Positions 1,787 through 46,756 of a stretch of 64,000 nt of DNA are shown piece by piece. Made by a program: the position numbers and the translations under genes. This stretch comes from Candidatus Acetothermia bacterium. Its GTDB lineage: Bacteria > Bipolaricaulota > Bipolaricaulia > RBG-16-55-9. Below the pieces are notes generated by a model that saw only the letters and a program-made list of their open reading frames with translations, was not told the DNA's origin and did not search any database. The stretch spans positions 106,631-170,630 of the forward strand of contig JACQCZ010000014.1 in NCBI GenBank assembly GCA_016201405.1, written 5' to 3'. Each line of letters starts with the position of its first letter. Position 1 is the first letter of the stretch.

Positions 1787-2209
1787 ATGGCCAAGGCGCG
1801 AGTCATCTGGAATCAAGATATGCAATTTGTGGGGATCACCGAGAGCGGACATGCCGTTGTAGTCGATGCAACGCCGGATCACGGCGGCTATGGCTCTGCG
1901 CCCAGCAACACAGAGATGATCGCGGTTGCCCAGGGCGGCTGCACTGGGATGGACATCGTTTCGATCCTGCAAAAGAAGCGTGTTGCGTTTGACCGCTTTG
2001 AGATGGAAGTTGATTTGCAGCCCACAAAAGAGCATCCACGGTATATTCAGAGAGTCGAGATCACTTACAAAATCTGGGGTGAAGACCTCTCGAAAGACGC
2101 CATCCACCGCGCCGTTGAGTTATCGCTTGAGAAATATTGCATTGTGGCGCACACCTTGCGCGGACGCGCGGAGTTAAGCTACAAGATTCTGATCAATCCA
2201 TCAGAATAG
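1787..2209 (+). CDS. OsmC/Ohr family protein
   Basis: 140 aa; size and conserved Cys/Gly pattern (AQGGCTGMD) consistent with OsmC-like peroxiredoxin fold. Confidence 0.75.
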   Translation: MAKARVIWNQDMQFVGITESGHAVVVDATPDHGGYGSAPSNTEMIAVAQGGCTGMDIVSILQKKRVAFDRFEMEVDLQPTKEHPRYIQRVEITYKIWGEDLSKDAIHRAVELSLEKYCIVAHTLRGRAELSYKILINPSE

Positions 2210-3454
2210 ATCGGGGAAATCTCCGCTCACATCCATAACGTCCAACTCGATGATCTTGGCTGTAAAACCAAGTAGCTCTGCCAGATTTGGATCTGTGCGC
2301 CCGCCATCTCCGGAGATCAGTTCTTTCACATAAAGCCCGCCATCACAGCGAAGCTCTATCATAGCCTCTGTAGGGCTTAACAACTCTCCTTGGATAGAAA
2401 ATAGATAGCGCCATCGCGTCAGGTTGGCGCGGCGATGAAGCACTCGCTCTGGCGTCTGCTGCGAGATCTTTCCAGTCAACTTTGCGAGTGTACCATTAAG
2501 AACGACAGAATTTATCGGCTTCTCGAAAGTCACTTTTGCCCGATACGACTTTTGAGCCTTCCCTTCTTTGATCTCTTCAACGACTTTTCTTGAAACAAAA
2601 TGGAGATCTCCGGCTTCGACTTTTCCGCTGGCAGTGGCGTTGATTTCACTCTTTAATCCAGCAAGTTTCAACGTACGTACTTTGGGGCTCTTAATCTCCA
2701 GCACAAAAGGCCGCCCAGTGCCGAGCATTCGCGCGTCAATATCCTCGCGACCAGCGCCATGAAAGGCATGCTCTTTGCTTTTTGCCGCCTCTAGCACGGG
2801 AGCGGCAATCAGCTCTCCCACGCTCTCTGGGTACTGCTTCCCCGTCCCCTTGCAATGAGCACAGCCCTTGCCTTTGCATTTTCGGCAGGGCCAGATAGTT
2901 TGCGGAATATTTCGTACAAATTTTTGGTACCGCCCATAGATGTAGAGCGAATGAATTTCAATTTCCAGTTTCTTTCGTTCCAAATCGATTAAAAAGACGA
3001 CTTCAGGTTGGTTAAAATCGACGGCAATCTCCCGTCCTGTTACGTTTTGAGCCTGGCCGAATCTCTTGCCCACCAACCGATTGAACTCCTGTTTGAAAGG
3101 CTCCACTTGTTCTTGAGGAATCGCATAGCGACTCCAGAAGCTCTGCTCAGCCCGGACCACATTCTCAGGAGGGCGCGTTCCCACCAGGTATTTTGCAAAT
3201 TCGACTCCTTCAATACGATCGGCAGAGAGCCTGCTCCATTCTGCTACCTGCTCGAATAGATTATTGCAGATTGAGCAGATAGCAGGGCTATCGGGCTTCT
3301 TTCCTGATTCCATCGCATAGAGGACGCGAAGCGCCCTTCCCCGCTCTTCAACGCTAAGAGCCGTACCTAGTTTGGCAAAACAGCGACCTAAGCAGTGATC
3401 GCAAATGACTTCGTTTGCCAAGATCTCTCTTGCCATCTCAATGAGTGGTTTCAT
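2201..3454 (-). CDS. pus10: tRNA pseudouridine synthase Pus10 (archaeal/eukaryotic type)
   Basis: 417 aa; N-terminal CxxC...CxxC zinc motif, a second Cys cluster (CRKCKGKGCAHCKG) and catalytic-looking GREDIDARMLGTGRPF motif. Confidence 0.7.
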   Translation of the reverse strand: MKPLIEMAREILANEVICDHCLGRCFAKLGTALSVEERGRALRVLYAMESGKKPDSPAICSICNNLFEQVAEWSRLSADRIEGVEFAKYLVGTRPPENVVRAEQSFWSRYAIPQEQVEPFKQEFNRLVGKRFGQAQNVTGREIAVDFNQPEVVFLIDLERKKLEIEIHSLYIYGRYQKFVRNIPQTIWPCRKCKGKGCAHCKGTGKQYPESVGELIAAPVLEAAKSKEHAFHGAGREDIDARMLGTGRPFVLEIKSPKVRTLKLAGLKSEINATASGKVEAGDLHFVSRKVVEEIKEGKAQKSYRAKVTFEKPINSVVLNGTLAKLTGKISQQTPERVLHRRANLTRWRYLFSIQGELLSPTEAMIELRCDGGLYVKELISGDGGRTDPNLAELLGFTAKIIELDVMDVSGDFPDLF

Positions 3455-3528: not shown

Positions 3529-4467
3529 TTGCACATTGTGAGTAAGCCGATGGAGTGGTGGAAGTATCTCATTTTGGCGATCTTTGGCATTGGCATTGTC
3601 GAAGGGATTAGGCATTTGGAGACAGAGGCACTTCTAGCGCTCTTCTTAGGATCTTCGTTCGTGGCCGCAACATGGCTCATCACTCGATCTTCAATCGGAG
3701 AGGCGATTGCAGACCGCATTCGCAGCAGCCCAAAAACTCCTTCCATTAGCGATGCGGTTGCAGAGCACATCCGAGGTAAGACTCTGGCGCAGTTGGACAA
3801 GATAGACAGACCCGACCTGATCTCTCAGCCTGACAAACTCTTCTCAAAGGGTGACAAGAAGAAGATTGAGTCAGATTTTCCAGAAGGAATCATCGCCATC
3901 ATGTTTACCGACATGGAGAATTTTACAGGTCTCATCGAGCGTGGCGATGAAGAGGCTTATCGATTGTTGAAGAAACACAACCAAGTCATCCATGAATCGG
4001 CCAAGCAGTGGAAGGGATATGTTGTCAAGAGCTATGGCGATGGCTTCATGGTCGCCTTTCCGAGCGCGCGCCGCGCTGTCTATGCCGCCATCAGCATCCA
4101 ACAGCTTCTGGAGAACCAGAATTGCAATTTGATGGCCGATGAACAGATTCATGTGCGCATCGGCATTGATGCGGGAGAGCCGATCAAAGAGGGCGATGAT
4201 TACATTGGCAGGGCGGTCAACCGGGCAGCCCGCATCTCAGCACTTGCCAGCGGCAAGCAGATCTATGTATCCGACACGGTGAGGCAGCTCGTCGGCCCTA
4301 TCCAAAATCTGCAATACATTGATCTCGGAGACCAGTCGCTAAAAGGATTCAAAGACCAGCACCAGATCTTTGAGATCAGCCGCGTCGAGGCCCTGGCCCA
4401 CCCGCTAGATTCTGAGATTGACCGCGGCATTGCAGAGCTGGAGAAGCGCGTCAACACCGGAAAATGA
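3529..4467 (+). CDS. membrane-anchored class III adenylate/guanylate cyclase
   Basis: 312 aa; N-terminal TM helices, then cyclase core (FTDMENFT...YGDGFMVAF...RIGIDAGEPI). Stop overlaps ruvX start (ATGA). Confidence 0.8.
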   Translation: MHIVSKPMEWWKYLILAIFGIGIVEGIRHLETEALLALFLGSSFVAATWLITRSSIGEAIADRIRSSPKTPSISDAVAEHIRGKTLAQLDKIDRPDLISQPDKLFSKGDKKKIESDFPEGIIAIMFTDMENFTGLIERGDEEAYRLLKKHNQVIHESAKQWKGYVVKSYGDGFMVAFPSARRAVYAAISIQQLLENQNCNLMADEQIHVRIGIDAGEPIKEGDDYIGRAVNRAARISALASGKQIYVSDTVRQLVGPIQNLQYIDLGDQSLKGFKDQHQIFEISRVEALAHPLDSEIDRGIAELEKRVNTGK

Positions 4468-4922
4468 GAATCTTGGGGATTGATCTTGGCTCAAAGCGCA
4501 TCGGCCTCGCCCTCAGCGACGAGACAGGAGCACTCGCGTCAGGCTTTGGAACCTATCAGCGCAGAACACAGCCTCAGGACCTTGAATATTTTCGCACTCT
4601 TGTAGAGGACCAGAATATCTCAACCATTGTGCTGGGCATGCCTTTCAACATGAACGGCTCGTTAGGGCCCAAAGCCGATGAGTCGCTGCTCTTCAAAGCA
4701 GAGCTTGAGAGATTGGTGAAGATTCCAGTCGAGCTATTTGATGAGCGCCTCACCTCTGTCGAAGCCGAGCGCGTGCTCATTGAAGCCAATCTGAGCCGCA
4801 AGAGACGCAAAGAGATTCTGGATCAGCAGGCGGCTATTCTTATCCTGCAAGGCTTTCTGGATCAAAGGCGCTTTCAGAACTCAAACAACCAACCAGGCAT
4901 TCCACTGGATAATGCACTCTAG
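4464..4922 (+). CDS. ruvX: Holliday junction resolvase-like protein RuvX/YqgF
   Basis: 152 aa; N-terminus MRILGIDLGSKRIGLALSD is the YqgF/RuvX signature. Confidence 0.9.
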   Translation: MRILGIDLGSKRIGLALSDETGALASGFGTYQRRTQPQDLEYFRTLVEDQNISTIVLGMPFNMNGSLGPKADESLLFKAELERLVKIPVELFDERLTSVEAERVLIEANLSRKRRKEILDQQAAILILQGFLDQRRFQNSNNQPGIPLDNAL

Positions 4923-19993: not shown

Positions 19994-20030
19994 CTTTCAA
20001 CCAACATCGCGGGCGCGAGCGGAGGCATTG

Positions 20031-21905
20031 ATGAGGGGGGCATTATTTCGCTGGATTCTGAGAGTTCTATTCTCTCTTCTTCTGGTCCTCTCCTTCGCTT
20101 ACCAAACTGGGCTTGCAGATGTCAGTCTAGATGTCGAAGTGGGCTTTGGAGGCCAATTCATGTCCGGCCAGTACACTCTCGTCCAGGTCGTCTTGCAATA
20201 TCAGGGCCCGCCTCTCACGGGAGAGCTGGCACTTCACCAAGAGTACAAATCTCCGCTCGAGAGCGAGAAGTCCTTTTCTGAGCGGCGCACGGTGCGCCTG
20301 GGCTCAAATGTCAACCAGCTCTATCAATTCTATTTCCCCGTCTCCCGCTCTCCCTGGCCCAATGAGGATCAGCCCGCTCTCTCCATCACGCTCTCATCCA
20401 ATGGGAGCGTGGTATTTTCGAAGCGCGTTCCCCTCGCCGGCGACGTTGAGCCACAGCCGCTCGTGCTCGGAGTGAGTGAGACCAACTTTCCCCGCATGCT
20501 CACGACAGGAGAGCGGATAGAGAGCGTGGGACTCAATCAGCTGCCGGAGGACTGGCGAGGATATGACGGAGTGAGAAGAATCTATCTGGGCCGCGCGAGA
20601 ACCGACCAGCTCACCAAGCGCCAACAAGACGCGATCCAGCAGTGGATCACACGGGGCGGAGAATTCGTGGTGCTCGGCGGTGAGAATTTCTACTTGCAGG
20701 ATTCTTCGTGGCTGCGCCAGATCATTCCGTTTGATGTCTCAGGAATCGAAGCGGCACAGGCCTCGTCCGATCTGCCCACGTATGTTGCAGGCAAGCCTCT
20801 CGGGGAAGTCCTCATTCAGCGGGCTGCGATCCCACTTCTGGTAGAGCAGCGGGTCGTCAATGGCATCATCTTCTTTTCCGTGCTCGACTTATCACAGCAG
20901 ACGGAATTGTCTCAAGCCATCTGGAACGACTTGCGGCAGACCTCTTCTCTGCTCGACAATCAGCCTCCTGATCTGGGCTCAAAGATTTTGGGAAACACCC
21001 AGCTCGCTTATCCATCAAAGCCGCTCCTTGGCGCTCTGTTGATTCTTTATCTAATAGGCTTTGCCTATATCAGCCTTTGGATGCTGCGGCAGCCCCTCAA
21101 CACCTTGCTCTCCTCTCCCGAGGGCGGTGAGATGCGCAGAAAGAGGCAGGGCTGGAAGGTGCTCGCCTTTGTTGTCGGCTGGATGCTCATCTTTGCAGTC
21201 CCGAGCCTTGCCTATCTGGGCCAGCCCAGATTTCACAGTTATTTTCAGTCTCTTGAGGTCGGGTTGATCAGAGCCCAGGAGGGATCGTCCTGGGGCTGGA
21301 GCCAGAGCTGGTACAGTGTCATCTCCAAGAAGGAGCGCAGCCTCTCGCTGGCAGCCAGCGACAACTCTCTCATCCTGCCCCTGGGGCAGACGCAGCTGGA
21401 ACTGCTGCAAGAACGCCCCGATGCGTGGGATTTGGACTTTTCACCCAACCCTATGAAAAGCTGGTCCACAGAGAACCTCTATACCGAAGAGATGGTGCCG
21501 CTTGACATCGGCGTACGCGCGGACAAAGAGGGTGGAGATGTCAGAGGCTCTCGGATTCAGGTCTATAATGGCAGCCAATGGAACCTGCGGGATGCCGTGC
21601 TCTTTCGCAACGGAGTCTATTATCCCATCGGAGAGGTCCCAGCCGGAAAGTCGCTCACCGCTGAGCTTAGCGGTCTGGGACTCAATGAGTGGTCACCATG
21701 GAGTGGCTTCAAAGACCTCTGGAGCATCGAGGAGCGGGTGAAGAATGTCATCATGAATCAGCTCGGGATTACGGATGAATTGAAGAGGGATCGCAGCCAA
21801 TGGGTCTTGCTCGGCTGGGCCGAAGTTCGCGCGCTGACTCAGGCTTACCGCGAAAATCGTCAGGGACTTTCACTCATTCTCATTCGCTCCAAGGAGCAAG
21901 AGTAG
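20031..21905 (+). CDS. hypothetical exported/membrane protein, first gene of the MoxR-VWA operon
   Basis: About 624 aa; N-terminal signal peptide, two central TM helices, no recognised catalytic motif. The ORF formally starts at TTG 20028. Confidence 0.5.
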   Translation: MRGALFRWILRVLFSLLLVLSFAYQTGLADVSLDVEVGFGGQFMSGQYTLVQVVLQYQGPPLTGELALHQEYKSPLESEKSFSERRTVRLGSNVNQLYQFYFPVSRSPWPNEDQPALSITLSSNGSVVFSKRVPLAGDVEPQPLVLGVSETNFPRMLTTGERIESVGLNQLPEDWRGYDGVRRIYLGRARTDQLTKRQQDAIQQWITRGGEFVVLGGENFYLQDSSWLRQIIPFDVSGIEAAQASSDLPTYVAGKPLGEVLIQRAAIPLLVEQRVVNGIIFFSVLDLSQQTELSQAIWNDLRQTSSLLDNQPPDLGSKILGNTQLAYPSKPLLGALLILYLIGFAYISLWMLRQPLNTLLSSPEGGEMRRKRQGWKVLAFVVGWMLIFAVPSLAYLGQPRFHSYFQSLEVGLIRAQEGSSWGWSQSWYSVISKKERSLSLAASDNSLILPLGQTQLELLQERPDAWDLDFSPNPMKSWSTENLYTEEMVPLDIGVRADKEGGDVRGSRIQVYNGSQWNLRDAVLFRNGVYYPIGEVPAGKSLTAELSGLGLNEWSPWSGFKDLWSIEERVKNVIMNQLGITDELKRDRSQWVLLGWAEVRALTQAYRENRQGLSLILIRSKEQE

Positions 21906-21907
21906 CG

Positions 21908-22666
21908 GTGTCCGCGCAAGAGCGCGCATCAGTAGCCAATCCCAAGAGCACTGCCCCGAAAATCCCTTGGCTGGGAACCGATTGGGACTACTGGTTCGAC
22001 CGCGAGACGTGGTCATCCCTGATGGCGTTTCTTCTGCTGTCGGGAGGCATCTTGCTCGTTGCCTTGCCGAACACAACCGAAGTCGGCAGGCTCACTCCCA
22101 AATCCATGGAAGCGACTGATCTCTTCTCGGCCCTCTATTCAATCTTATTTGGGATTCTGGCGATCACGCTTGGACAGGCCGAGTTGTCTTGGGGACATCG
22201 GCTCAGCAGCCAGGAGCATTTTGTTCATCTATTTAGCCGTCTGGTGGTGCCGCTGGTGCTCAGTCTGCCCTACTGGATTCTTTATATCTTCGCCAATATC
22301 ATGAGCCCACTTTTAATTATTGTACTCCTTGTGCATTTTATTTTATATGGTTATGTGCTCGGGCTTTGCGGCTGGCGGCTATCGCTGATGGGGCAGTCCG
22401 AGATCTTCCAATTCAACATCAAATATCTGAGCTACTTTGGGCTGGTCGCGATTACCTTCTTTGCTGCGCCGCTCCAGTTCATCAATCCCATCTTGGCGAT
22501 CACGGAGATTTTGGGGGAGAATGGCATGGCTCCCGCACTCAATCTGTTGGGCTTCTATACCGCATGGCTGGCGCTGGGTGCGGTCATAGCGTACTTGATC
22601 TTGCACAAACTGAATACGGAGAATCGAGAAATGGAGGAGTATGAAAACGAACTATCTCGTCGTTGA
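21908..22666 (+). CDS. hypothetical polytopic membrane protein
   Basis: About 253 aa with about 6 predicted TM helices; GTG start immediately after the upstream stop (the ORF track begins at 21800, overlapping the previous gene). Confidence 0.45.
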   Translation: MSAQERASVANPKSTAPKIPWLGTDWDYWFDRETWSSLMAFLLLSGGILLVALPNTTEVGRLTPKSMEATDLFSALYSILFGILAITLGQAELSWGHRLSSQEHFVHLFSRLVVPLVLSLPYWILYIFANIMSPLLIIVLLVHFILYGYVLGLCGWRLSLMGQSEIFQFNIKYLSYFGLVAITFFAAPLQFINPILAITEILGENGMAPALNLLGFYTAWLALGAVIAYLILHKLNTENREMEEYENELSRR

Positions 22667-24380
22667 GCAAGAGGTGATTGAGGCGCGGCGGCGGTTGAAT
22701 CGCCTTCAGGGTGTGCGGCTGGGGTTGACTCTCTCAGCCTCGCTGACGCTCGTCTATCTCATTCTCTTCTTCTTTGGCTGGGTACAGTTGATTCAGCCCT
22801 GGCCGATTCTCATTCTCTTTAACGCCATCTGCGGCGGACTCGGCATGATGTGGGGAGATCGGCGTCCAACGCGCCTCCAGCACGACCTGCTCCGTGTCGA
22901 CCGCGCGCTAGGGCTTGGCGAGAAGCTCACGACGATCTTTGAGCTTCGCCGGGGTGAGCGCTCATCCGACATCTTGGAAGCCCTCTATCGCCGGATTGAC
23001 CAGAGCCACGTCGATCCCAAAGAAGTCTTCAAGCTCCCCCGCACGGAGCAGAATGGCTGGTATGCGCTCGGCGGGATCACTGCCGGCATCTTGCTGATGA
23101 TCGGGCTTTGGGGGAATGGCCTCAGTCTCCTCCATATTGAGCAATGGCTCCAAGGTCTGCCGATAAATGAGCTTTCCAGTCAACAGACTCTCCTGGGTAA
23201 AGATGCACTGGATGGCTCACAAAGCGTTTTAGGGAAGGGCCAGAATCAATCGAATGCCAAAGATAAGAAGAGTGATGACGCAGCCTGTGAAAAGCAAGAC
23301 TCTTCTTCAACAGCCCTGAGCAGCGATGCAAATTGCGTCAATGGCAGAGATCAGAATTCACCTACAGATTCGCAAAATCAGACGGCGAAGAATCAAAATG
23401 GCCAGAATATGCCGCCAAACTTTCCACAGAGTCTGTCCGATTTGCTGCAACAGCTCCAGCAGGGGAATATCTCACAAGATGAAGTGCAAAAAGATCTGAG
23501 CAGCCTCGCCAATCAGCTTCCGCCAGGCCTGTTGCAAGATATGCTAAAAGACGCAGCAAAGAGCATGGATCCTGCTGACCTTGCGAAGCGGCTGGCCGAT
23601 GCCCTCAAGGAAGCACAACGTCAGGATGAGAACCAGAAGAAGCGGGCTCAATCCAATGACAAAAATGACAACCAGCCCTCTCCTCAAGGGGGCCCAGGCT
23701 CCAAAGGCCAGGGGATCCCGGGTATGGCCTCTGGAGACCAATTGGCAAATCAGAATCAAAACAACTCGAATAAATCAGGCACAGAAGCCCCGAACAGCGG
23801 GAGCTCTTCCTCACAATCCGGTGAGAACCCAGATCAGCCCAAAGGTGGGGATCAGTCAAACCAGTCTGGGCAGGCCGGGGGCAAGCAGGGCAGCAGTGAC
23901 TCCCTCTCCCAGAATGGCAAGAGCAAAAATGACTCACCCGACAAGAAAGATGAAAACGGGAAGAGCTCTGATGGCTCCGGCACGAACGACGGATCCAATA
24001 ACAGCGGAAGTAGTAGCGGCTCCCCTGAAAGCTCATCGGATGACGAGGGCTCTGGTGGCAAAGACTCATCGGGTGGCAATGGAGCCGGTGACACCGCTGG
24101 AAATGGCAAGGATGGGAAGAAGGATCAGTCTTTGACCATGGATAAGAGCCTGCTCATCCACGGCGCCAGTCTTCCGCAGGATGCTGAGCAGCTCAAGCGG
24201 TTAATTACGCTTGGATTGCCCGTGGATTTGCAAGGCACTCAAGCCGATGGGACACCCACGCTCAAGCTCAATATCGAGCGTGTCGAGTCGCTGCTCCAGC
24301 TCCGCGAGCTTCCCCCCAATCTGAGAGCGCTGGTCCGGGCCTATTTCTTGGCTATCGCCGGAGAAAAATCGTCCAAATAA
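22641..24380 (+). CDS. hypothetical membrane protein with a roughly 300-aa Q/N/S/D/G/K-rich disordered region
   Basis: 579 aa; N-terminal TM helices, third TM near residue 150, long low-complexity polar segment, conserved-looking C-terminal 80 aa. Start overlaps upstream stop by 26 nt. Confidence 0.5.
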   Translation: MKTNYLVVEQEVIEARRRLNRLQGVRLGLTLSASLTLVYLILFFFGWVQLIQPWPILILFNAICGGLGMMWGDRRPTRLQHDLLRVDRALGLGEKLTTIFELRRGERSSDILEALYRRIDQSHVDPKEVFKLPRTEQNGWYALGGITAGILLMIGLWGNGLSLLHIEQWLQGLPINELSSQQTLLGKDALDGSQSVLGKGQNQSNAKDKKSDDAACEKQDSSSTALSSDANCVNGRDQNSPTDSQNQTAKNQNGQNMPPNFPQSLSDLLQQLQQGNISQDEVQKDLSSLANQLPPGLLQDMLKDAAKSMDPADLAKRLADALKEAQRQDENQKKRAQSNDKNDNQPSPQGGPGSKGQGIPGMASGDQLANQNQNNSNKSGTEAPNSGSSSSQSGENPDQPKGGDQSNQSGQAGGKQGSSDSLSQNGKSKNDSPDKKDENGKSSDGSGTNDGSNNSGSSSGSPESSSDDEGSGGKDSSGGNGAGDTAGNGKDGKKDQSLTMDKSLLIHGASLPQDAEQLKRLITLGLPVDLQGTQADGTPTLKLNIERVESLLQLRELPPNLRALVRAYFLAIAGEKSSK

Positions 24381-24402: not shown

Positions 24403-25389
24403 ATGACCATCGAGATGCAACTGGCAAAAACAGAAGAGGTCTTCCAGAAGCTGACGCGTGACATTCAGAAAGTTATTGTCGGCCACCAGGAGACTATCCG
24501 GGGGACGCTGATCTGCCTGCTCTGTGGCGGGCATGCTCTTCTCGAAGGCGTACCCGGGCTCGGCAAGACCCTCACCGTAAAGACGCTGGGTAAATTATTG
24601 GGGCTCTCTTTCTCCAGAATTCAGTTTACGCCCGATCTCATGCCCGCAGACATTTTGGGAACCAATATCATTGTGGAAGAGGGAGGCCGGAGGGCCTTTG
24701 AGTTTTCAAAGGGCCCCATCTTTGCCCATATTGTGCTGGCGGACGAGATAAACCGCGCCACCCCCAAGACGCAATCTGCGCTCCTCGAAGCGATGCAGGA
24801 GCGCGGGGTCACCATCTCCGGCAAAACTTATGTACTGGACGAGCCATTTATCGTTCTGGCCACGCAGAACCCCATCGAGATGGAAGGCACATATCCTCTG
24901 CCTGAGGCACAAGTAGACCGCTTCTTCTTCAAGATTGTCCTCGATCAGCCGACGCAAGAAGAGCTGGACGAGATTCTCAAGCGCCACATGACATCACCGG
25001 AAGTGAAGCACATCGCCGGAAGCGCCATCTCGCGCGAGACTCTAGTCGACGCAAAGAAGCTGATGGCTCAGATCCCTATTGCGGAGCCGTTGCGCCATTA
25101 CATCGTGCGGCTGGTCAATGCCACGCATCCCAAGCGGGATGAGGCAGCTCCGCTGGTCAAAGAATACGTCGAATATGGAGCGAGCCCGCGCGCTGGCATC
25201 GCCCTTCTCTGGGGCGCAAAGGCCAATGCATTCTTAGATGGCCAATTGAACGTTCGCATCGAAGATATTCAGCGCGTCTTTGTGCCTGCATTCCGGCACC
25301 GAATCATCCGCAACTTCCGGGGCGAGGCGGAGGGCATCGCCGTCGATGAGATCTTAAAACAAGTGATCGAGAAGACTCCCGAGGTATAG
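24403..25389 (+). CDS. MoxR family AAA+ ATPase
   Basis: 328 aa; Walker A GVPGLGKT, Walker B VLADEINR, and the MoxR sensor region. Confidence 0.9.
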   Translation: MTIEMQLAKTEEVFQKLTRDIQKVIVGHQETIRGTLICLLCGGHALLEGVPGLGKTLTVKTLGKLLGLSFSRIQFTPDLMPADILGTNIIVEEGGRRAFEFSKGPIFAHIVLADEINRATPKTQSALLEAMQERGVTISGKTYVLDEPFIVLATQNPIEMEGTYPLPEAQVDRFFFKIVLDQPTQEELDEILKRHMTSPEVKHIAGSAISRETLVDAKKLMAQIPIAEPLRHYIVRLVNATHPKRDEAAPLVKEYVEYGASPRAGIALLWGAKANAFLDGQLNVRIEDIQRVFVPAFRHRIIRNFRGEAEGIAVDEILKQVIEKTPEV

Positions 25390-25395
25390 CGGCAC

Positions 25396-26268
25396 ATGCC
25401 CCTTCTGCTCGATTCAGCCTATCTCAAAAAGCTCGAAAACCTGGGTCTGGTCATTCGGGGGCGCTTTCATGGCTATATGACCGGAAAGCGGCTCACTTCC
25501 CGCTCCGGGATGAGCCTGGAATTTGCTGAATACAAAGAATATTCGCCGGGGGATGATTTTCGCTATGTAGACTGGAATCTCTATGGACGCCTTGGGAAGC
25601 TCTTTGTCAAACGCTTTAACCGCGAAGAGGACGTTCCGATCTATCTCTTTTTGGACATTAGCCATTCGATGGCCATCGGAGAAAAGCTCAATTACGCCGT
25701 TCTGCTGGCGGGCACGCTGGCCTATTTAGGACTGAAAGAATTCAATCGCGTCGGGATCTTTCCGTTTGCCAGCGATCTGGCTCTCGGCGTGCCTCCCAAA
25801 GGGAGCTACAAACAGCTCTTCCAGATCTTCCATTTCTTAGAGAAAGTCGTGCCAGCGGGAGAGACCTCCATCAATGAGTCCCTGACGCGCTTTACGCGCA
25901 TCCGCCGTGAGAGCGGGCTGGCCGTCATTATCAGCGACATGCTCAGCGAGGATGGCTTTGAAGAGGGACTGGCACAGCTCCTCTATCATGGCTATGAGGT
26001 GATCGTCCTTCATCTGTTGGCTCCCGATGATTTGAATCCAGCGTGGAATGGCGAGATTCGCCTCAAAAATATTGAAGACCAGAAGGAGATTACAGTCCAT
26101 GTGGATCGCGCTGCGCTGAACGAGTACCAGACGGCCTTGGATAATTATCGTTCAAGACTGGAAGCATTCTGTCGTGAGCGCGGCATCCGCTATGCCCTGG
26201 TCTCTACGGACAGCCCTCTTGAGAAGACAGTCTTCGAGACCTTGCGGGAAGGGGCGCTGGTTCAATGA
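25396..26268 (+). CDS. DUF58 domain protein (MoxR partner)
   Basis: 290 aa; DUF58 signature YVDWNLYGRLGKLFVKRF and LFLDISHSM; directly downstream of MoxR. Confidence 0.85.
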   Translation: MPLLLDSAYLKKLENLGLVIRGRFHGYMTGKRLTSRSGMSLEFAEYKEYSPGDDFRYVDWNLYGRLGKLFVKRFNREEDVPIYLFLDISHSMAIGEKLNYAVLLAGTLAYLGLKEFNRVGIFPFASDLALGVPPKGSYKQLFQIFHFLEKVVPAGETSINESLTRFTRIRRESGLAVIISDMLSEDGFEEGLAQLLYHGYEVIVLHLLAPDDLNPAWNGEIRLKNIEDQKEITVHVDRAALNEYQTALDNYRSRLEAFCRERGIRYALVSTDSPLEKTVFETLREGALVQ

Positions 26269-28154
26269 CCTTTCTATCGGGCATTGCGCTCTGGCTTCTA
26301 GGCCTTGGTGCGATCATCACATTTATTTATTTCTTAAAGCGCCAGGCGCGGGTGCAGCCCGTCTCGACGCTCTTTCTCTGGCAAAGGATTGAGCAGAGGC
26401 CCCAGAGCGCGCTCCGTTTTCAGTGGACCCAGCTCCTCGGGCTCATCTTGCAGTTACTGGCTCTCACAGCCATTGTGGTGGGGATTGCCCAGCCGGTGAT
26501 CTACTCTGCCAGCGGCGGTGTGGGACGAATGGCCATTCTGCTCGATGGAAGCGCCAGCATGCGAGCGCTCATGCCTTCTGAAAAGATCACACGCTTTGAG
26601 CGGGCCGTACAGCGGGCTCAAGGGTTGCTCGATGAGAATCCGGCTGCCGAGGTGACCTTGGTCGAGGCACAGACGCACAGCGCAATCCTTGTACCGCCTA
26701 CCCATGATCATTCCTTCATTCGCAAGGCTCTGAGCGACGCCAGGCCGACGTATCAGGGGAATGCTGACTCGGGCGAGCTGCTCAGCCTTCTTCAAAGTCA
26801 GAGCAGCACAGGCTATGACCAAGTTGTCCTGATCAGCGATCAAGCTGCCAAGCCGCAGCAGCAGCAATTGGGGATTGATGTTGAGTCCGTCTTGGGAGAT
26901 GAATCTTCTGAAAATATTGCCCTTACGGACTTTTCTGTGCGTGAGCAGCCCAATGGCAAGGGGTATGACTTCTATCTCCAAGCCTGGAACTCATCGAGTG
27001 ATGCAGTAAACGTTCCGCTGGATATAGAAGCCGATGGGAAATCCGTCCAGTCGGATGTGATCACCATCCCCGCGCATGGCTCTCTCTCACGAACTTTCTC
27101 ATCGTCGCTTCGCTATGCGGATGAGTTTCGAGCCAAGATCGATACCACGGCTCTTCCCGACGACTGGAGCGATGATGACGTACGCTATGCGACATCTCCA
27201 CAGCCACCCCCCTGGAAGATTTTATGGGTAGGCAAGATCAATTTTTATCTAGAGAGCTTTTTGCAGAATTCAGGAGAGGTTGACCTGACCGAGAAGGCGA
27301 CCCTGGATGAAGCGGGAGATCTCAACCGCTATGACGTGGTCCTGCTCAATCAAGTCGATCTTTCGGATGCTCAGGCTGGCGCGGGTCATTATCTGGCATT
27401 TGGCGGCTCTTTTGGAAGCTATATCCTCTCCAAAAGCATTCATGATCTGACGAGTGGCGCGGTGGATGTCCAGAAAGATGACCCACTCTTGCAAGGGATG
27501 GACCCGACCGCTTGGCGACTGCTCCACATTCCGGACGCGGCCGTCGATCCCAAGGGAGAGGTCTTATTATCTTCCGAGAGTCTTCCGTTTCTTTATATTT
27601 ATGAGAAGCCGGGTCTGCGGCTTTCGTATATCGGAGCCGATTTGGAGGCTTCCAATCTTGTATTGTCGATTGATTTTCCAATACTGATCTATCGTCTGCT
27701 CTCTTGGCTTTCTCCCCGCTCTGGGGAGAGCACAACGCTGACGGCTGGAGACGAGCTTCCGCTATCATCATTAGAAAATATAAAGAGCATTGTCGATCCG
27801 CAAGGCAAGACCTGTCAATACAATTCTTCCGCAAGCCAGTGCGGCAGCTTGGGCGAGATCGGTTTCTATCAGGCCACGCGAGCCGATGGAGAGGCCGTGA
27901 CTTTCGCCGCCAATGCGGATCCAACAGAGTCTATTTGGGAGGATGCTTCGGATGCGGCTGCAACTGCAGTGACTCCGACGAGCTCACAGCAGGCAGGGTC
28001 ACTGGGCGACACGCCGCAAGCGTTAAAAGCGGCGATCCCTGTATGGCCCTATTTGCTGGCGATTGGATTGATCTTATTACTGGCTGAGCTCTTCACATTT
28101 CACCGTCCAACGGCAATTCCATGGCTGCCCTCCCTGGGGAGGAAGAGGGCATGA
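26265..28154 (+). CDS. BatA-like membrane protein with VWA domain
   Basis: 629 aa; N-terminal BatA-type TM region, MIDAS-like DGSAS motif, C-terminal TM helix. Start overlaps upstream stop. Confidence 0.7.
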   Translation: MTFLSGIALWLLGLGAIITFIYFLKRQARVQPVSTLFLWQRIEQRPQSALRFQWTQLLGLILQLLALTAIVVGIAQPVIYSASGGVGRMAILLDGSASMRALMPSEKITRFERAVQRAQGLLDENPAAEVTLVEAQTHSAILVPPTHDHSFIRKALSDARPTYQGNADSGELLSLLQSQSSTGYDQVVLISDQAAKPQQQQLGIDVESVLGDESSENIALTDFSVREQPNGKGYDFYLQAWNSSSDAVNVPLDIEADGKSVQSDVITIPAHGSLSRTFSSSLRYADEFRAKIDTTALPDDWSDDDVRYATSPQPPPWKILWVGKINFYLESFLQNSGEVDLTEKATLDEAGDLNRYDVVLLNQVDLSDAQAGAGHYLAFGGSFGSYILSKSIHDLTSGAVDVQKDDPLLQGMDPTAWRLLHIPDAAVDPKGEVLLSSESLPFLYIYEKPGLRLSYIGADLEASNLVLSIDFPILIYRLLSWLSPRSGESTTLTAGDELPLSSLENIKSIVDPQGKTCQYNSSASQCGSLGEIGFYQATRADGEAVTFAANADPTESIWEDASDAAATAVTPTSSQQAGSLGDTPQALKAAIPVWPYLLAIGLILLLAELFTFHRPTAIPWLPSLGRKRA

Positions 28155-30721
28155 TTCGGTTCAGCCAGCTCTGGCCGCTTCTCTTACTGCTTATCCCTAT
28201 CGGACTGCTCCTCTGGCAGTGGGAGGCGCTGAAGCGCTTTACCCTCGGCGACCGCATTTCGTTTGGGGCGCGGCTCGGAGTTGTGGCGCTTGGCATCCTC
28301 GCACTCTCAGGACCGCAATTGTTGAGCTGGACGGAATCGCACTACGTCTATTTTCTGGCAGATCTTTCCAAAAGCGTGAGCCCTCAAGACCGGGGTCAGC
28401 TGCTCTCGGAGCTTCGCGCACTCGCCAAGCCGCAAGAGTACACTCAATACGGCCTGATCGTCTTTGGGGTCAAGCCGTATGTCGAAGCTCCATTCAGCCC
28501 AATGTTAAATTTGAACGAGGTCTTGACGAATGTCGATAGTGAAGGAACAGATTTGCAGGCCGCACTGGAGCTGGCCATGTCAACCTTCCCCCGTGATGGC
28601 AAGAAGACGATTGTGCTTCTTTCCGATGGCCAGCCAAGCCAGGGAGAGACGACAGAGGCGCTGGCCCGCGCCAAACGGGAAGGGGTAGAGATCTTCACTT
28701 TGCCGATGGACCCGCCAGCCTCTGAGTTTTCAATCCAGACGATCCAGGCTCCACAAGAGGTCGCAGTCCAGCTCCCCTTCTCATTCCAGAGCGTCGTCTA
28801 TGCCTCACGATCCAGCACCGGAAAGCTGCTCACATACCGCAATGAGACACTGATTGACACAAAAGATGTCGCTCTGCGTCCTGGGCTCAATTACTTTTCG
28901 TATAGCGACAAAGTGAATGACCCCGGCAGCTATGAGTACCGAGCCGAGCTTGTTGTCGCTGGCGATGCGCTCCCTCAGAACAATCATTATCGCGCATTGG
29001 TCGATGCGATCGGCGATCCGCGCATTCTTCTGGTAGAGAACAATTCTTCAGAGCAAGAATCGGTGATGGGAAAGCTGTTAAAAAACTCTGGCTATGCCTT
29101 CTCCAAAGTGAGCCTGAATGAGCTGGCGCCGACAGCCAGCTCCCTGCTCTCATACCGAGCTGTGATTATGAACGAAGTGCCGCTCAAAGATCTCACGGCA
29201 CGGCAGACCGAATTTCTAGAAAATTATGTGCGCGATCTCGGCGGAGGGCTCTTCCTCGTCCAGGGCAGGCAGTCCGTCGAAGAGTTTTATGACCGCCAGT
29301 TTGAGCAGATGCTGCCCATCACCTATGAAGGTCCGCAAGAGATCCAGCGCCCCGCGCTCGCTTTGGTGATGCTGCTCGACCGCTCCGGCAGCATGGGCGA
29401 GATCGCCGGCGGTGATACCAAGGGCAGCTATATGAAGATCGATCTCTTAAAACAGGCAGCACGAGAGGCCGTCTCCAAGCTCGATGACAACAGCCTTGTC
29501 GGCATCATCGGCTTTGACTCGACCTACGACTGGCTGGTAGACATTGGCCCCGTGAAAGGTCGGAAAGATGAGATTTTAGCTGCAGTTGATAAGCTCTATG
29601 CCAATGGCGGGACAGACATCTATCAGCCTCTCAAAGATGCCGTCGCCCAGTTGCAGAAGCTGACCGCGCGCGTCAAGCACATTCTGGTCTTCTCCGATGG
29701 AAAAGTATCCCAGCAGGGGCGCGATTTCGATCAAATCTTCCAGGAGATTGCCGGCAGCACGATCAGCGCCTCATCCATTGCCATCGGAGCACAAGCCGAT
29801 TTTGACTTCATGTGGAAGCTGGCGGATGCGGGGAGCGGCGCCAAATATCCAGTGGCCGATGCGCGGGATCTGCCACGAATCACGCTGGAAGAGATGGTGC
29901 GGCTGGAACGCGCCCGCTGGGTCAAAGGGCCATTGGGTGTCGAGGCCGGACCCTTTGCAAATCAGCTGACTGGAATTGACCCCAGCACCATCCCCAATGT
30001 CGATGGCTATGTTCTGACGTTTGAGAAGCCAACGGCGCAGACGCAGCTTCAGGTCCGTGCTGACAAAGATCATGCAGACCCTCTGGTGAGTCAGTGGCAC
30101 TATGGTCTGGGCAAGGTCTTTGTGCTCAACACCAGCTTTGAAGGCGAAGGCCTGGAGCGCTGGAAGTCCTGGAGCGGACTGGGCGAGCTGAGCTCTGAGA
30201 TTCTGAGCCAGGTCTACAGCGAGAGCACCATCAAGCCCAAAGAGCTAGCCGTCTGGACAGATTCTTCTAACTCAACGCTGAGCGTCCATGTTGAAGCGGA
30301 CCGCGACGGCAAATGGCTGGATCAATTGGTAATGAATGGGCAACTCAACACACCGGATGGCAAGTCAATTCCTCTCGACTTGGAACAGACGGGACCAGGG
30401 ACCTATCAGGCCACCGTAAAAGATCTGAGCGAAGGCGTCTATCTGCTCAATTTGGGTGAAGATTCACTCGGTCAAGTCCAAGAGGCTGTCCAGATTCCCT
30501 ATGCAGCGGAGTACAAAAAGATTGGGCTGAATGAGCCACTTTTGCAACAGATCGCAGAAGTGACTGGAGGAGAATATCTTGAGAATCCAGATCGCTTGCA
30601 AGGCCTGTTGCAGGGCCGGACACTGATCTACCGGGATATCTGGCAGGAGATTTTATTGGCAGCCCTCTTCTTCTTTCTGGCCGATCTGGCTCTGAGAAAA
30701 GTGCCTTTTCTGCACGCTTAA
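28151..30721 (+). CDS. BatB-like membrane protein with two VWA domains
   Basis: About 856 aa from ATG 28151 (ATGA overlap); N-terminal TM, two MIDAS-like motifs (DLSKS and DRSGS), C-terminal TM anchor. Confidence 0.7.
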   Translation: MIRFSQLWPLLLLLIPIGLLLWQWEALKRFTLGDRISFGARLGVVALGILALSGPQLLSWTESHYVYFLADLSKSVSPQDRGQLLSELRALAKPQEYTQYGLIVFGVKPYVEAPFSPMLNLNEVLTNVDSEGTDLQAALELAMSTFPRDGKKTIVLLSDGQPSQGETTEALARAKREGVEIFTLPMDPPASEFSIQTIQAPQEVAVQLPFSFQSVVYASRSSTGKLLTYRNETLIDTKDVALRPGLNYFSYSDKVNDPGSYEYRAELVVAGDALPQNNHYRALVDAIGDPRILLVENNSSEQESVMGKLLKNSGYAFSKVSLNELAPTASSLLSYRAVIMNEVPLKDLTARQTEFLENYVRDLGGGLFLVQGRQSVEEFYDRQFEQMLPITYEGPQEIQRPALALVMLLDRSGSMGEIAGGDTKGSYMKIDLLKQAAREAVSKLDDNSLVGIIGFDSTYDWLVDIGPVKGRKDEILAAVDKLYANGGTDIYQPLKDAVAQLQKLTARVKHILVFSDGKVSQQGRDFDQIFQEIAGSTISASSIAIGAQADFDFMWKLADAGSGAKYPVADARDLPRITLEEMVRLERARWVKGPLGVEAGPFANQLTGIDPSTIPNVDGYVLTFEKPTAQTQLQVRADKDHADPLVSQWHYGLGKVFVLNTSFEGEGLERWKSWSGLGELSSEILSQVYSESTIKPKELAVWTDSSNSTLSVHVEADRDGKWLDQLVMNGQLNTPDGKSIPLDLEQTGPGTYQATVKDLSEGVYLLNLGEDSLGQVQEAVQIPYAAEYKKIGLNEPLLQQIAEVTGGEYLENPDRLQGLLQGRTLIYRDIWQEILLAALFFFLADLALRKVPFLHA

Positions 30722-38766: not shown

Positions 38767-39201
38767 TCACCTCTTAGCACACTCTTGACAGACTGATGAT
38801 CCTTTGTCAACCACACGTCCGCATTCGCGGCAATTGGACTTCAAATCTTCGTAACAGTTGGGGCAGATGGCATGCTCACGGCCAACCGGCTTTCCGCAGT
38901 GAGGGCATTTGGAGGTAAATGAAAGGTTAAACTTTGAGGCCTTCTCTGCCAAAGGCTCAGGATAGGCGCGCAGCCAGATGGCGATCTGTCTGCTGGCGCG
39001 GAACGAGAATGGAACCCAGAAAAAGGCAAAGATGACCCAACTGATCCATTCTAAGATGGGGGTCAGCTCGCGGGCAAAGAGAATTCCAACCCAGATCAGC
39101 AGCCAAAAGGGGAGCCAGCGAAGCCAGCCACCTCCAAACCACGAGATCGAGCAGATTCTCCGCTCAGATCTTCTCTCGCGTCTCCACGTGCGATAGCTCA
39201 T
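38767..39201 (-). CDS. membrane protein with C-terminal zinc-ribbon
   Basis: Tryptophan-rich TM helices followed by four CxxC pairs (CPHCGK, CPNCYE, CRECGR, CQEC). Start uncertain; the ORF extends to 39255. Confidence 0.5.
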   Translation of the reverse strand: MSYRTWRRERRSERRICSISWFGGGWLRWLPFWLLIWVGILFARELTPILEWISWVIFAFFWVPFSFRASRQIAIWLRAYPEPLAEKASKFNLSFTSKCPHCGKPVGREHAICPNCYEDLKSNCRECGRVVDKGSSVCQECAKR

Positions 39202-40066
39202 TGACTTCCAGTGACTCCTCGTATTCGACTCGCTCAATCTCGCAGCCCAGGCCAATGATCACATTTTTGCCGCGGACAATCTTGGCTTTGGTCGATTCCA
39301 AGTGAATCTCATCGCCTTCAATCGTTTCGGCTTCGAGCACACCATTGCCAATAAAGCCGCTCACGTGGATGCCAAAGTTACCCAAGCTCTCTTTGAGCTG
39401 CCCCATCATGTCGGCTATCTTCTCCAGATCAACATCAATGTTGACCCCGAAGTCATTGAACTTCCAGCGCTTTCCTCGTGCTTTCTCTTCCATGCGTCTC
39501 TTGAATTTATCTTGGTCAAAGCCGCCAAATTTCTGCAAGACTTCGATCTTTTCGCCGCCAATCTCACGGGCATGAGAATCCCCACCTAGCCGAATTGAGA
39601 TCTCGTCGGCGCTGAGCAGACCGCCAATCTCAAAAGAGCCTTCCGAGTTGAATTTGTCGGCCTCGACGTCACCGCCGACTGCGCATGTGCCGCTGATCTT
39701 GATATAGCTGGTAGTTAGCTTACCGCCGATCTTCTGCGTGCCAGAGCACTTAAAGACATCTGCTGAGACATCGCCATTGACCACCGCTGAGCCTGTGGTG
39801 CGCAGGTCTTCGGCTTTCACGTTGCCATCGACGCGGCATGAGCCTGCTGAGTGAAACTCTTCCGCTTCGGCATCCCCTTCGATCGCGCATGACCCTGCAA
39901 TGCTGATCGACTCGGCTTTGACATCACCGGCAATTGTCCCTGAGCCGGCCACTTTGATGCTCTGGTAGGTGCCGCCGCTGATCCGGCCCGAGCCGGCAAT
40001 CGTGACGCGCTCTGCGCCCTCTTCTTCTTTGGCCTCTGATCTCATGACCATAATCGCTCCTTTCAC
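39164..40066 (-). CDS. bactofilin-like (polymer-forming, beta-helical repeat) protein with two repeat domains
   Basis: 300 aa; repeated G-x-G beta-strand pattern (GSGRISGG, VAGSGTIAGDV, IAGSCAIEGD, ISGTCAVGGDV) typical of bactofilin/YhbE-YhbF-type proteins. Confidence 0.6.
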   Translation of the reverse strand: MKGAIMVMRSEAKEEEGAERVTIAGSGRISGGTYQSIKVAGSGTIAGDVKAESISIAGSCAIEGDAEAEEFHSAGSCRVDGNVKAEDLRTTGSAVVNGDVSADVFKCSGTQKIGGKLTTSYIKISGTCAVGGDVEADKFNSEGSFEIGGLLSADEISIRLGGDSHAREIGGEKIEVLQKFGGFDQDKFKRRMEEKARGKRWKFNDFGVNIDVDLEKIADMMGQLKESLGNFGIHVSGFIGNGVLEAETIEGDEIHLESTKAKIVRGKNVIIGLGCEIERVEYEESLEVNELSHVETREKI

Positions 40067-40260
40067 CGCCCGTATTTCTTATGCTGCAGCCAGCGGAAGA
40101 GCAAGTAGATTCCTCCGCCAATCAGAACCCACGGCAAGACCGCAGCCACCAATTCGACGGCTGCCGTCAGAATCTTGAACAGAATCAATATTCCAATGAG
40201 CAGAAGAACCCCTGCGCCGATGAGAAAGAGCAGATTCTTGAATGGATTGTCATTGTTCAT
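40063..40260 (-). CDS. small two-TM membrane protein
   Basis: 65 aa, two hydrophobic helices; ATGA-type overlap with the downstream bactofilin-like gene. Confidence 0.4.
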   Translation of the reverse strand: MNNDNPFKNLLFLIGAGVLLLIGILILFKILTAAVELVAAVLPWVLIGGGIYLLFRWLQHKKYGR

Positions 40261-40277
40261 GACTAGTCTTCACTCCT

Positions 40278-40931
40278 TCAGATACCCCGTAAGCTCAGTT
40301 TCGTCTCTTCGACAAGCTGACTCAGATCCAGTTGTGCGACAATCTGCGTCTCGGGGTCAAATCGCACCTTCGATTTGGGAGCGATGCAGCAGAGGCTGCT
40401 CCCCTTCTCTTTGCGCAGCACCCATAGAGTCCAGTCGGCTTCGGATTCGCTTGCCGGCAATACATCGGCGTTGAGCGTGGAGAGAACAAGCCTTAACTCT
40501 TCCTGAGCCAGCTCTTTCGTCCCCAGCTCTTCGAGCGCCGCAATCTGAATGACATCTCGAAATGGGAATGGACTCTCATGCCCAGTGATCGTCTGAAAGC
40601 GCTTTAAGGTCTCAGTCGAGATAAATTTATTGACCAGCTCTTTAAGATCAAACCTGGCTTCCGTAGATTCAGGCGAGAGCATCTCTGTGATCTCTTCCAG
40701 GCTGTAATCTTCCTTGAGCTTCATGATCCGCTCGATGCGCTCAATGATCTTATCGCTCGGCAAAAAAGTCTCTTGGCCAGTAAAGGTGCTCTTGCGGATA
40801 AACCAGGACTCGGGGATGAGCCCCTTCCGCTTCCAGCGGTAAAACTGGCCATACGAGATGCCAAATTTATCTAGAATCCCTTTCTTGGAGATCAGTTCCG
40901 GCTCTCGCTGTGTAACCTCTTTGTCAGCCAT
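40278..40931 (-). CDS. DUF4004 (YhbD-like) MerR-type HTH protein
   Basis: N-terminal motif ISKKGILDKFGISYGQFYRWKRKGLIPESWFIRKSTFTGQETF. Start chosen at MADKEV so the pspA promoter lies in intergenic DNA; the ORF extends to 41012. Confidence 0.55.
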   Translation of the reverse strand: MADKEVTQREPELISKKGILDKFGISYGQFYRWKRKGLIPESWFIRKSTFTGQETFLPSDKIIERIERIMKLKEDYSLEEITEMLSPESTEARFDLKELVNKFISTETLKRFQTITGHESPFPFRDVIQIAALEELGTKELAQEELRLVLSTLNADVLPASESEADWTLWVLRKEKGSSLCCIAPKSKVRFDPETQIVAQLDLSQLVEETKLSLRGI

Positions 40932-40980
40932 AACGATTGCATTGTAACATAACACTGTTACGATTACAAGAGGGAAGAGT

Positions 40981-41009
40981 TTTGCAGGACCGGCTCGCTC
41001 TCTTATAAT
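40981..41009 (+). promoter_or_regulatory. putative sigma70-type promoter of pspA-like gene
   Basis: TTTGCA at 40981-40986, 17-nt spacer, TATAAT at 41004-41009; about 65 nt upstream of ATG 41075. Confidence 0.45.
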
Positions 41010-41074
41010 CAATGGGCTAGGCGAGCTTATGAGGATTCAACCCACATGAGACTCGGAGCGAAAGGGGCATCTGA

Positions 41075-46642: not shown

Positions 46643-46756
46643 GTGAGTACGTCCCCCCAAAAACTCTCCCGGATCAGGGGAGAAAGAAGAATTCAATTCT
46701 AAGTGTCAATTTTAGGATTGTCAAAAATCTCGTGATTTGTGGACAGGATGATATTT

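Follow-up and report, generated by a model that had tools for sequence, protein, structure and literature searches.

Two membrane-anchored class III cyclases of a Candidatus Acetothermia bacterium share an N-terminal module with small proteins of pspA operons, a possible link between membrane stress and cyclic AMP

Introduction

What a bacterial nucleotide cyclase responds to, when it seems to consist of a membrane anchor and a catalytic core, is the question raised by a 64,000-nucleotide stretch of DNA from a Candidatus Acetothermia bacterium (assembly GCA_016201405.1, contig JACQCZ010000014.1, positions 106,631 to 170,630 of the forward strand; hereafter the window). It encodes two class III cyclases, designated here cyc1 and cyc2, which an earlier note on this DNA had described as only a short transmembrane (TM) anchor and a catalytic core with no sensor domains. 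Most bacterial class III cyclases have no known input, and those that seem ‘sensor-less’ tend to be passed over as uninterpretable. In the present case, what looks like a bare anchor suggests a particular input, the phage-shock (Psp) membrane-stress system. We propose that cyc1 and cyc2 may be adenylyl cyclases built on a membrane module of the kind that partners PspA, plausibly coupling membrane stress to cyclic AMP (cAMP), a reading for which the case stands evenly poised and in which it is the regulation that we infer. The enzyme class itself is already known; what is new is the N-terminal module and its Psp link.

Both open reading frames (ORFs) named in the earlier note are present, at 3529–4467 (+) and 42172–43011 (−), although the first more likely starts at the ATG at 3550 than at the alternative TTG at 3529 (312 residues, the numbering followed here for cyc1), because all homologues begin at the ATG and the resulting 305-residue product is exactly NCBI entry MBI1729949.1, from a Candidatus Acetothermia/Bipolaricaulota metagenome-assembled genome (MAG). 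The cyc2 sequence is identical to MBI1729994.1, and both entries, which lie on a 488-kb contig, are annotated generically only. Directly computed gene structures and alignments give 38% identity between the two proteins across nearly their full length (E 2e-60), so that they are true paralogues, as had been claimed on the basis of the YGDGFMV, RIGI..GEPI and YIGR.VN.AARI blocks found in both; their membrane anchoring and small architecture were likewise described correctly. This full-length architecture is rare, with about 33 clusters among 5.8 billion proteins, and genome matches of the family come from MAGs of the Bipolaricaulota, the phylum to which Acetothermia belongs, together with a few Fraserbacteria and unclassified MAGs.

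The membrane module and its stand-alone relatives

Two TM helices are predicted in cyc1 and one in cyc2, and directly after the TM segment the cyclase family shares a juxtamembrane motif with the consensus RSPIGEAIAERIR, whose conservation in the family alignment exceeds that of the TM helices themselves. AlphaFold2 (AF2) models place the motif on the cytoplasmic side, where PspA acts, and in cyc1 a low-confidence linker separates it from the cyclase domain. The loop between the two TM helices of cyc1, about four residues long, is too short for an external sensor domain, and Pfam searches with the N-terminal regions alone, at E-values up to 10, returned nothing meaningful. The TM anchor of the earlier description is therefore real, but the word ‘only’ does not hold, since cyc1 has a two-helix hairpin and the anchor is followed by a conserved motif common to small proteins of pspA operons. 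Similarly, the statement that sensor domains are lacking is correct as far as Pfam is concerned, but misses that the N-terminus is a conserved module common to another protein family.

This second family was encountered when a profile of the cyclase N-termini (A2) yielded, among the matches listed, 119 proteins of 85–128 residues with no Pfam assignment, an abundant group that filled these matches, with the cyclases themselves not among them and fusions to other domains possibly missed. The small proteins are laid out alike: one TM helix, optionally preceded by a Pro-rich N-terminal tail, leads into the motif FRSP(I/V)GEAIAERIR, which a linker that is basic or rich in Gly joins to a coiled coil with ELAERLDFAERLL at its end. 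They form a large family, which at a cutoff of E ≤ 1e-3 counts 2,603 clusters (50% identity) and at E ≤ 1e-10 still 365, and neither Pfam (at E up to 1) nor NCBIfam has a model for it; those members that carry a name all come from Gemmatimonadetes/Gemmatimonadales MAGs. Between the cyclases and the small proteins, and hence across two phyla, the motif is near-identical.

Profile comparison of the small family (A3) with the cyclase family (A1) by hhalign gave a probability of 97% and an E-value of 7.6e-11 over 23 columns covering the end of the TM helix and the motif. A hidden Markov model (HMM) built from A3, and thus from small proteins only, was then compared with all ORFs of at least 40 residues in the window, where it matched only cyc1 (E 9e-8, the top match) and cyc2 (E 0.011). 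When 90 other loci were compared in the same way, the ORFs matched were again only the family’s own cyclases, and in none of about 75 unrelated cyclase-domain loci was there a match; by protein, the HMM recognised 22 of 33 family cyclases (19–37 bits), while 30 cyclase-domain proteins with a different N-terminus all went unmatched. For the cyc2 type the resemblance extends beyond the motif, an entire small protein aligning in colinear fashion with the first 65–76 residues (A5, A3 HMM), where HMM positions 25–82 align to the N-terminus of cyc2 and positions 26–93 to that of its orthologue in locus L084. The linker helix of the cyc2 type occupies a position colinear with the coiled coil of the small proteins, the ERLDFAERLL signature not being kept. 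Judged by these sequence comparisons, the TM helix and amphipathic motif are a conserved module common to the cyclases and to stand-alone small proteins, and the sharing itself is a directly computed result.

At the opposite end of the cyclases lies a conserved C-terminal helix (A1 columns ~345–380), with the consensus ALAHPLDSEIExxLAELE in the cyc1 type and EALESPExRELExRLxELE in the cyc2 type. As a separate observation, this helix resembles the N-terminal linker helix of the cyc2 type and bears a weak likeness to the small proteins’ coiled coil; in cyc1-type proteins, cyc1 included, the C-terminal tail gives only weak secondary matches to the A3 HMM, for cyc1 in its coiled-coil section.

Association of the module with pspA

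The genomic setting of the stand-alone module was evaluated in a metagenome scan of 80 small-protein loci, 58 of which were evaluable in the sense of having enough downstream DNA or a PspA ORF already found. In 47 of these 58 the small-protein gene is followed by a PspA ORF on its own strand, directly adjacent in 41; at the P0089 locus the small protein is one of four paralogues arranged in tandem in an operon, with pspA immediately after them. The contigs with a small protein upstream of pspA are of Gemmatimonadota type, from soil, and frequently hold it in tandem copies. From this directly computed linkage it follows that the stand-alone module is a conserved pspA operon partner, and since the same module begins the cyclases, these look like a PspA-partner module fused to a cyclase output. 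Two published comparative-genomics surveys of the Psp system mention neither a cyclase partner nor the Gemmatimonadota small proteins, and the literature found on PspA together with adenylate cyclase was confined to two-hybrid methodology.

Tandem duplication is seen in further detail at locus L091 (2614–4640, and also in L092–L095), where four consecutive TM-SPIGEAIAERIR-coiled-coil paralogues of 102, 93, 91 and 113 residues stand directly before pspA, with a gene for an AI-2E-family transporter after it.

In the window it is cyc2 that adjoins pspA, here a pspA-PspAA fusion gene of a kind previously reported for Actinobacteria and Chloroflexi. The two genes are convergent, as the earlier note had remarked, and their stop codons overlap in the tetranucleotide TTAA (42172–42175); the adjacency is as observed in that note, but it had been treated as incidental, whereas in this analysis it is the more informative clue. 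The palindromic overlap leaves no room for a terminator, so that the convergent transcripts would run into each other’s coding regions; in L084, L088 and L089 the corresponding gap is 3–14 nt. Upstream of cyc2 and co-directional with it are two ABC exporter genes, with which it possibly forms one operon, or else cyc2 may have its own promoter-like site at 43077–43048 (10/12), a consensus match only, like that upstream of pspA at 40981–41009. L084, L088 and L089 repeat the whole block, namely alaS, the two ABC genes, cyc2, the convergent pspA-PspAA, and genes for a DUF4004 protein, an ORF of 62–65 residues, a bactofilin-like protein and a protein with a TM helix and a double zinc ribbon; across these three loci and the window cyc2 identity is 62–68% and that of the neighbouring proteins 34–72%.

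The part of this block that is divergent from pspA-PspAA (38767–41012, −) is of some interest in itself, encoding the DUF4004 protein, a 65-residue ORF with two TM helices (40063–40260), a 300-residue bactofilin-like protein and the TM double zinc ribbon protein as a cluster kept in the same three loci. Neither DUF4004 nor bactofilin is mentioned as a Psp partner in the two Psp comparative surveys.

The catalytic core and its substrate

Both proteins match the Pfam cyclase family PF00211 above its gathering score (cyc1, E 4e-18, 66 bits; cyc2, E 1.4e-21, 77 bits), and among solved structures the best match to both is Ma1120 from Mycobacterium avium, a characterised class III adenylyl cyclase (cyc1, E 2.4e-32, 116 bits; cyc2, E 1e-27, 100 bits), followed by 3mr7, Rv1900c and Rv1264, a set of relatives that places cyc1 and cyc2 in the short-arm IIIc group. 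AF2 models, built as monomers on family alignments, have pLDDT values mostly above 90 in the catalytic domain, and that of cyc1 superposes on Ma1120 (Foldseek) with a TM-score of 0.90 and a root-mean-square deviation of 1.4–2.0 Å, so that the fold, too, is a computed result.

In class III cyclases the residue pair that reads the base is Lys/Asp in ATP-specific enzymes and of Glu/Cys type in GTP-specific ones. The canonical residues were read directly from the 34-sequence family alignment (A1), with roles assigned after PMC4215837 and PMC7384201, and the set is complete in both proteins (Table 1). The metal-binding Asp pair and the transition-state residues, whose loss had been named as a sign of pseudo-cyclases, are invariant in 34/34 sequences, by which a pseudo-cyclase was rejected. 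The substrate pairs K167/D224 of cyc1 and K134/D189 of cyc2 align with K101/D157 of Ma1120, a pair that by mutagenesis specifies ATP (PMC4215837), and because of this alignment ATP is the predicted substrate of both enzymes, a choice that had been left between ATP and GTP. The spacing between R210 and R235 in cyc1 is 25 residues, as against 32 in RhGC (Arg545 to Arg577, PMC7384201), a IIIc-type shortening. Of the residues beyond this set, K272 of cyc1, in an LKGF motif, is equivalent to Lys612 of RhGC, a contact of the gamma-phosphate (PMC7384201); the cyc2 clade and a third clade, 10/34 sequences in all, have Gln at this position (Gln237 in cyc2, 42301–42303), a change that may alter kinetics or triphosphate binding. 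Taken together, cyc1 and cyc2 are almost certainly intact, functional-looking, ATP-type class IIIc-like adenylyl cyclases, with enzymatic activity a prediction from their residues and fold.

Table 1. Features of cyc1, cyc2 and their neighbours, with coordinates in the window; cyc1 residues follow the 312-residue numbering
Feature	Coordinates	Strand	Residues	Description and evidence
cyc1	3550–4467	+	305 aa	Membrane-anchored, predicted class IIIc-like adenylyl cyclase; ORF, PF00211, Ma1120 match, Foldseek
cyc1 two-helix membrane hairpin	3556–3687	+	TM1 10–27, loop of ~4 residues, TM2 32–53	AF2, hydropathy, conserved in homologues
cyc1 juxtamembrane amphipathic motif RSSIGEAIADRIR	3685–3723	+	53–65	AF2 helix 55–65; hydrophobic moment 0.54
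cyc1 cyclase homology domain	3889–4383	+	121–285	Pfam, Ma1120, family alignment, AF2
cyc1 C-terminal helix (ALAHPLDSEIDRGIAELEKRV region)	4405–4458	+	293–310	AF2; conserved in family
cyc2	42172–43011	−	279 aa	Membrane-anchored, predicted class IIIc-like adenylyl cyclase; ORF, PF00211, Ma1120 match
cyc2 N-terminal module	42766–43005	−	TM 3–24, degenerate motif NSPPAKAWATRIAG 25–38, long linker helix 44–82	AF2, A5, A3 HMM
cyc2 cyclase homology domain	42262–42756	−	about 86–250	Pfam, Ma1120, family alignment, AF2
cyc2 C-terminal helix	42178–42243	−	257–278	AF2, pLDDT ~82–84; conserved in clade
Metal Asp pair			cyc1 D128, D171; cyc2 D95, D138	Invariant 34/34
Substrate (adenine) Lys			cyc1 K167; cyc2 K134	Invariant 34/34
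Substrate (adenine) Asp			cyc1 D224; cyc2 D189	Invariant 34/34
Phosphate Arg			cyc1 R210; cyc2 R175	Invariant 34/34
Transition-state Asn, Arg			cyc1 N231, R235; cyc2 N196, R200	Invariant 34/34
pspA-PspAA fusion gene	41075–42175	+		PF04012 E 2.3e-14, PF22743 E 1.5e-6; convergent with cyc2
Two ABC exporter genes	43074–46696 (43074–44921, 44921–46696)	−		Upstream of cyc2, co-directional; orthologues with ABC_membrane, ABC_tran
ruvX (YqgF-type)	4464–4922	+		PF03652 E 1.5e-41; start overlaps cyc1 stop
Pus10-type pseudouridine synthase	2201–3454	−		PF21238 E 3e-71, PF22023; divergent from cyc1

Neighbouring genes of the window

The setting of cyc1 is a different one. Its TGA (4465–4467) overlaps the ATG of ruvX (4464–4466) in the ATGA arrangement already reported for this gene pair, and on its other side a 95-nt intergenic region is shared with a divergent gene for a Pus10-type pseudouridine synthase; no strong sigma-70-like site was found upstream of cyc1. 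The same order, with Pus10 divergent from cyc1 and ruvX following it, recurs in L081 and L085, again with an overlap of 4 nt, and in L002, where 28 nt separate the two genes; cyclase identities are 45–55%. With the window this makes four of eight cyc1-type loci, the order being absent from L001, L082, L086 and L087. In each of two metagenomes that yielded a pair of cyclases (P0008/P0026 and P0009/P0025), the cyc2 type adjoins pspA and the cyc1 type is unlinked from ruvX. For P0020 the context is uninformative, the gene lying at a contig end. The overlap is best read as compact-genome packaging, with cyc1 and ruvX transcribed together and translationally coupled in an operon that is conserved locally.

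The synthase itself, which combines Pus10_C with an archaeal THUMP domain, is a curiosity in a bacterial genome, as Pus10 is normally archaeal or eukaryotic, and it is divergent from cyc1-ruvX in all four loci; in L081, genes for CLP1_P, Rad52_Rad22 and V-type ATPase proteins lie near Pus10 and cyc1.

Receptors for cyclic mononucleotides (cNMPs), which the earlier note had suggested looking for in the genome, were sought in the window by a Pfam scan of 60 ORFs, comprising 58 of the 61 predicted genes and two further ORFs; the three genes outside it, the two ABC exporters and the AlaRS gene, were identified through orthologues. No cNMP_binding, CRP, CARF, GAF or phosphodiesterase domain was found among the 60. 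Elsewhere in the window, two ORFs of 625 and 579 residues (20028–21905 and 22641–24380, +) have no Pfam match and lie directly upstream of an operon of MoxR (AAA_3), DUF58, BatA/VWA and VWA genes (24403–30721), and an 837-residue protein (52441–54954, +) begins with a VWA domain, after which some 600 residues are coiled coil, giving many weak matches to coiled-coil families, including DUF7310.

From membrane stress to cAMP: mechanism and alternatives

Class III enzymes work as head-to-tail homodimers, and cyc1 and cyc2 would each dimerise in this manner at the cytoplasmic face of the membrane. The N-terminal module, consisting of one or two TM helices, the amphipathic helix RSPIGEAIAERIR and, in the cyc2 type, a coiled-coil helix, would then be more than an inert anchor: it could dock PspA, or sense the same membrane perturbation as PspA, and either event might alter how close the two catalytic domains lie or how they face each other, and in this way set cAMP output. 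A more far-reaching form of the proposal holds that the TM helix and RSPIGEAIAERIR constitute an unrecognised PspA-docking or membrane-stress-sensing element, which on its own serves as a PspB-like partner of PspA (about 2,600 clusters, absent from published Psp surveys) and which, fused to an adenylyl cyclase in Acetothermia/Bipolaricaulota, creates a direct route from the phage-shock (ESCRT-III-like) system to cAMP; this we put forward tentatively, as a possibility that we are more inclined to doubt than to accept. To our knowledge, Psp signalling has so far been described only through PspF, two-component systems and ClgR-type regulators, and if the link is true, Psp biology would gain a second-messenger output, and the small proteins would stand as a large group of PspA operon partners that had gone unannotated. 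Should the link prove false, what is left is a pair of ordinary adenylyl cyclases with generic annotations. That Psp membrane partners can be joined to signalling outputs is illustrated by PspC proteins fused to histidine kinases (PMC11237479).

Several observations weigh against a coupling of this kind. Enzymatic activity, PspA binding and stress regulation of cyc1 and cyc2 are all properties that we infer, and no cNMP receptor was found among the 60 ORFs scanned in the 64-kb window. The shared similarity is short (23 hhalign columns, 19–37 bits), so that convergence of a juxtamembrane amphipathic helix is possible, and the small proteins were first found with a cyclase profile. The cyc2 of the window has the most degenerate motif, and cyc1, which has the best motif, does not adjoin pspA. 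Neither do the cyc2-type cyclases of L083 and L003 or the third-clade cyclase of L090, and where cyc2 does adjoin pspA the two genes are convergent and not co-transcribed. The four contigs with this arrangement are broadly syntenic over about ten genes and amount to roughly one evolutionary observation, and the named stand-alone members come from one phylum, the Gemmatimonadota, so that the pspA linkage could be lineage-specific.

The main rival explanation is that cyc1 and cyc2 are plain tethered adenylyl cyclases, constitutive or substrate-limited, with a generic juxtamembrane helix and with the adjacency to pspA and ruvX an inherited gene order. It gains from the lack of any known sensor domain by Pfam and from the short external loop of cyc1, and vertical inheritance could account for the synteny around cyc2 and pspA; the convergence of these two genes and the unrelated contexts of several family members also fit it well. 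However, the motif is better kept than the TM helices it follows and near-identical across two phyla, the stand-alone form of the module is linked to pspA in 47 of 58 loci, and the cyc2-type N-terminus matches a whole small protein and not the motif alone. Moreover, pspA occurs at about one gene per genome, making it unlikely that a module-bearing cyclase should land beside it by chance. We therefore consider the plain-cyclase explanation rather unlikely, if the most serious of the alternatives to a PspA-linked module. Far less probable is the idea, raised in the earlier note, that the overlap with ruvX ties cNMP signalling to a nucleic-acid-processing gene, cAMP controlling or responding to the activity of the RuvX/YqgF-type nuclease or of Pus10. 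Retention of the overlap or adjacency, together with the divergent Pus10, in four loci whose cyclases share only 45–55% identity speaks for it, but its basis is operon position alone, and the order is lost in the other four cyc1-type loci. RuvX and Pus10 have no cNMP-binding domain by Pfam, ruvX is a housekeeping gene of a type often co-transcribed with unrelated neighbours in compact genomes, and no link was found in the literature.

Least probable of all, to a degree that we think it can hardly apply, is a role outside cAMP signalling, be it Pycsar-like defence, another non-ATP cyclase or a dead pseudo-cyclase. Weak PADLOC matches to PycC (38 and 31 bits) and the Gln that replaces the gamma-phosphate Lys in the cyc2 clade hint in this direction, but the PycC scores fall far below those for PF00211 and Ma1120, the Lys/Asp pair is that of ATP-specific enzymes, the metal and transition-state residues are all invariant, and no effector with a cNMP-binding or TIR/TM domain is adjacent. 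A Pycsar role was accordingly rejected, the PycC matches being weak and generic and the neighbours being RuvX, Pus10, PspA and ABC exporters.

Comparison with known systems

On the side of the membrane module, the closest parallel to the stand-alone small proteins is PspB (cf. PspC, LiaI and PspM), which they resemble in their small size, a single passage through the membrane, a helical region in the cytoplasm, a gene position within pspA operons and occasional duplication. They differ from PspB (PF06667/TIGR02976) in showing no significant sequence relationship to it and in having no Pfam or NCBIfam model of their own. Homology to PspB was rejected as not demonstrable, the match to TIGR02976 having an E-value of 0.068 and 13.5 bits against a cutoff of 51.7, and hhalign giving a probability of 2% against E. 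coli PspB and a PspB alignment. The cyclases, for their part, depart from known Psp partners in their cyclase output, which the two comparative surveys do not list among such partners.

On the side of the enzyme, cyc1 and cyc2 share with Ma1120 and the IIIc mycobacterial cyclases Rv1900c (LipJ) and Rv1264 the same fold, the short-arm type, 36–39% identity and the Lys/Asp pair. They differ from Ma1120 in keeping the canonical transition-state Asn, which is Ala164 in that enzyme (PMC4215837), and in possessing a TM module and a conserved C-terminal helix, whereas the solved Ma1120 constructs have no TM region; Rv1900c and Rv1264, in turn, carry other N-terminal domains. In being membrane-tethered cyclase domains that need dimerisation, with a membrane part presumed to control catalysis, cyc1 and cyc2 are comparable to Rv1625c/Cya and to CyaB of P. 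aeruginosa. The latter belong to classes IIIa/IIIb and use six TM helices or a MASE2 domain with a helical transducer directly before the catalytic domain, whereas in cyc1 and cyc2 one or two TM helices, a juxtamembrane amphipathic helix and a low-confidence linker precede a IIIc-type core.

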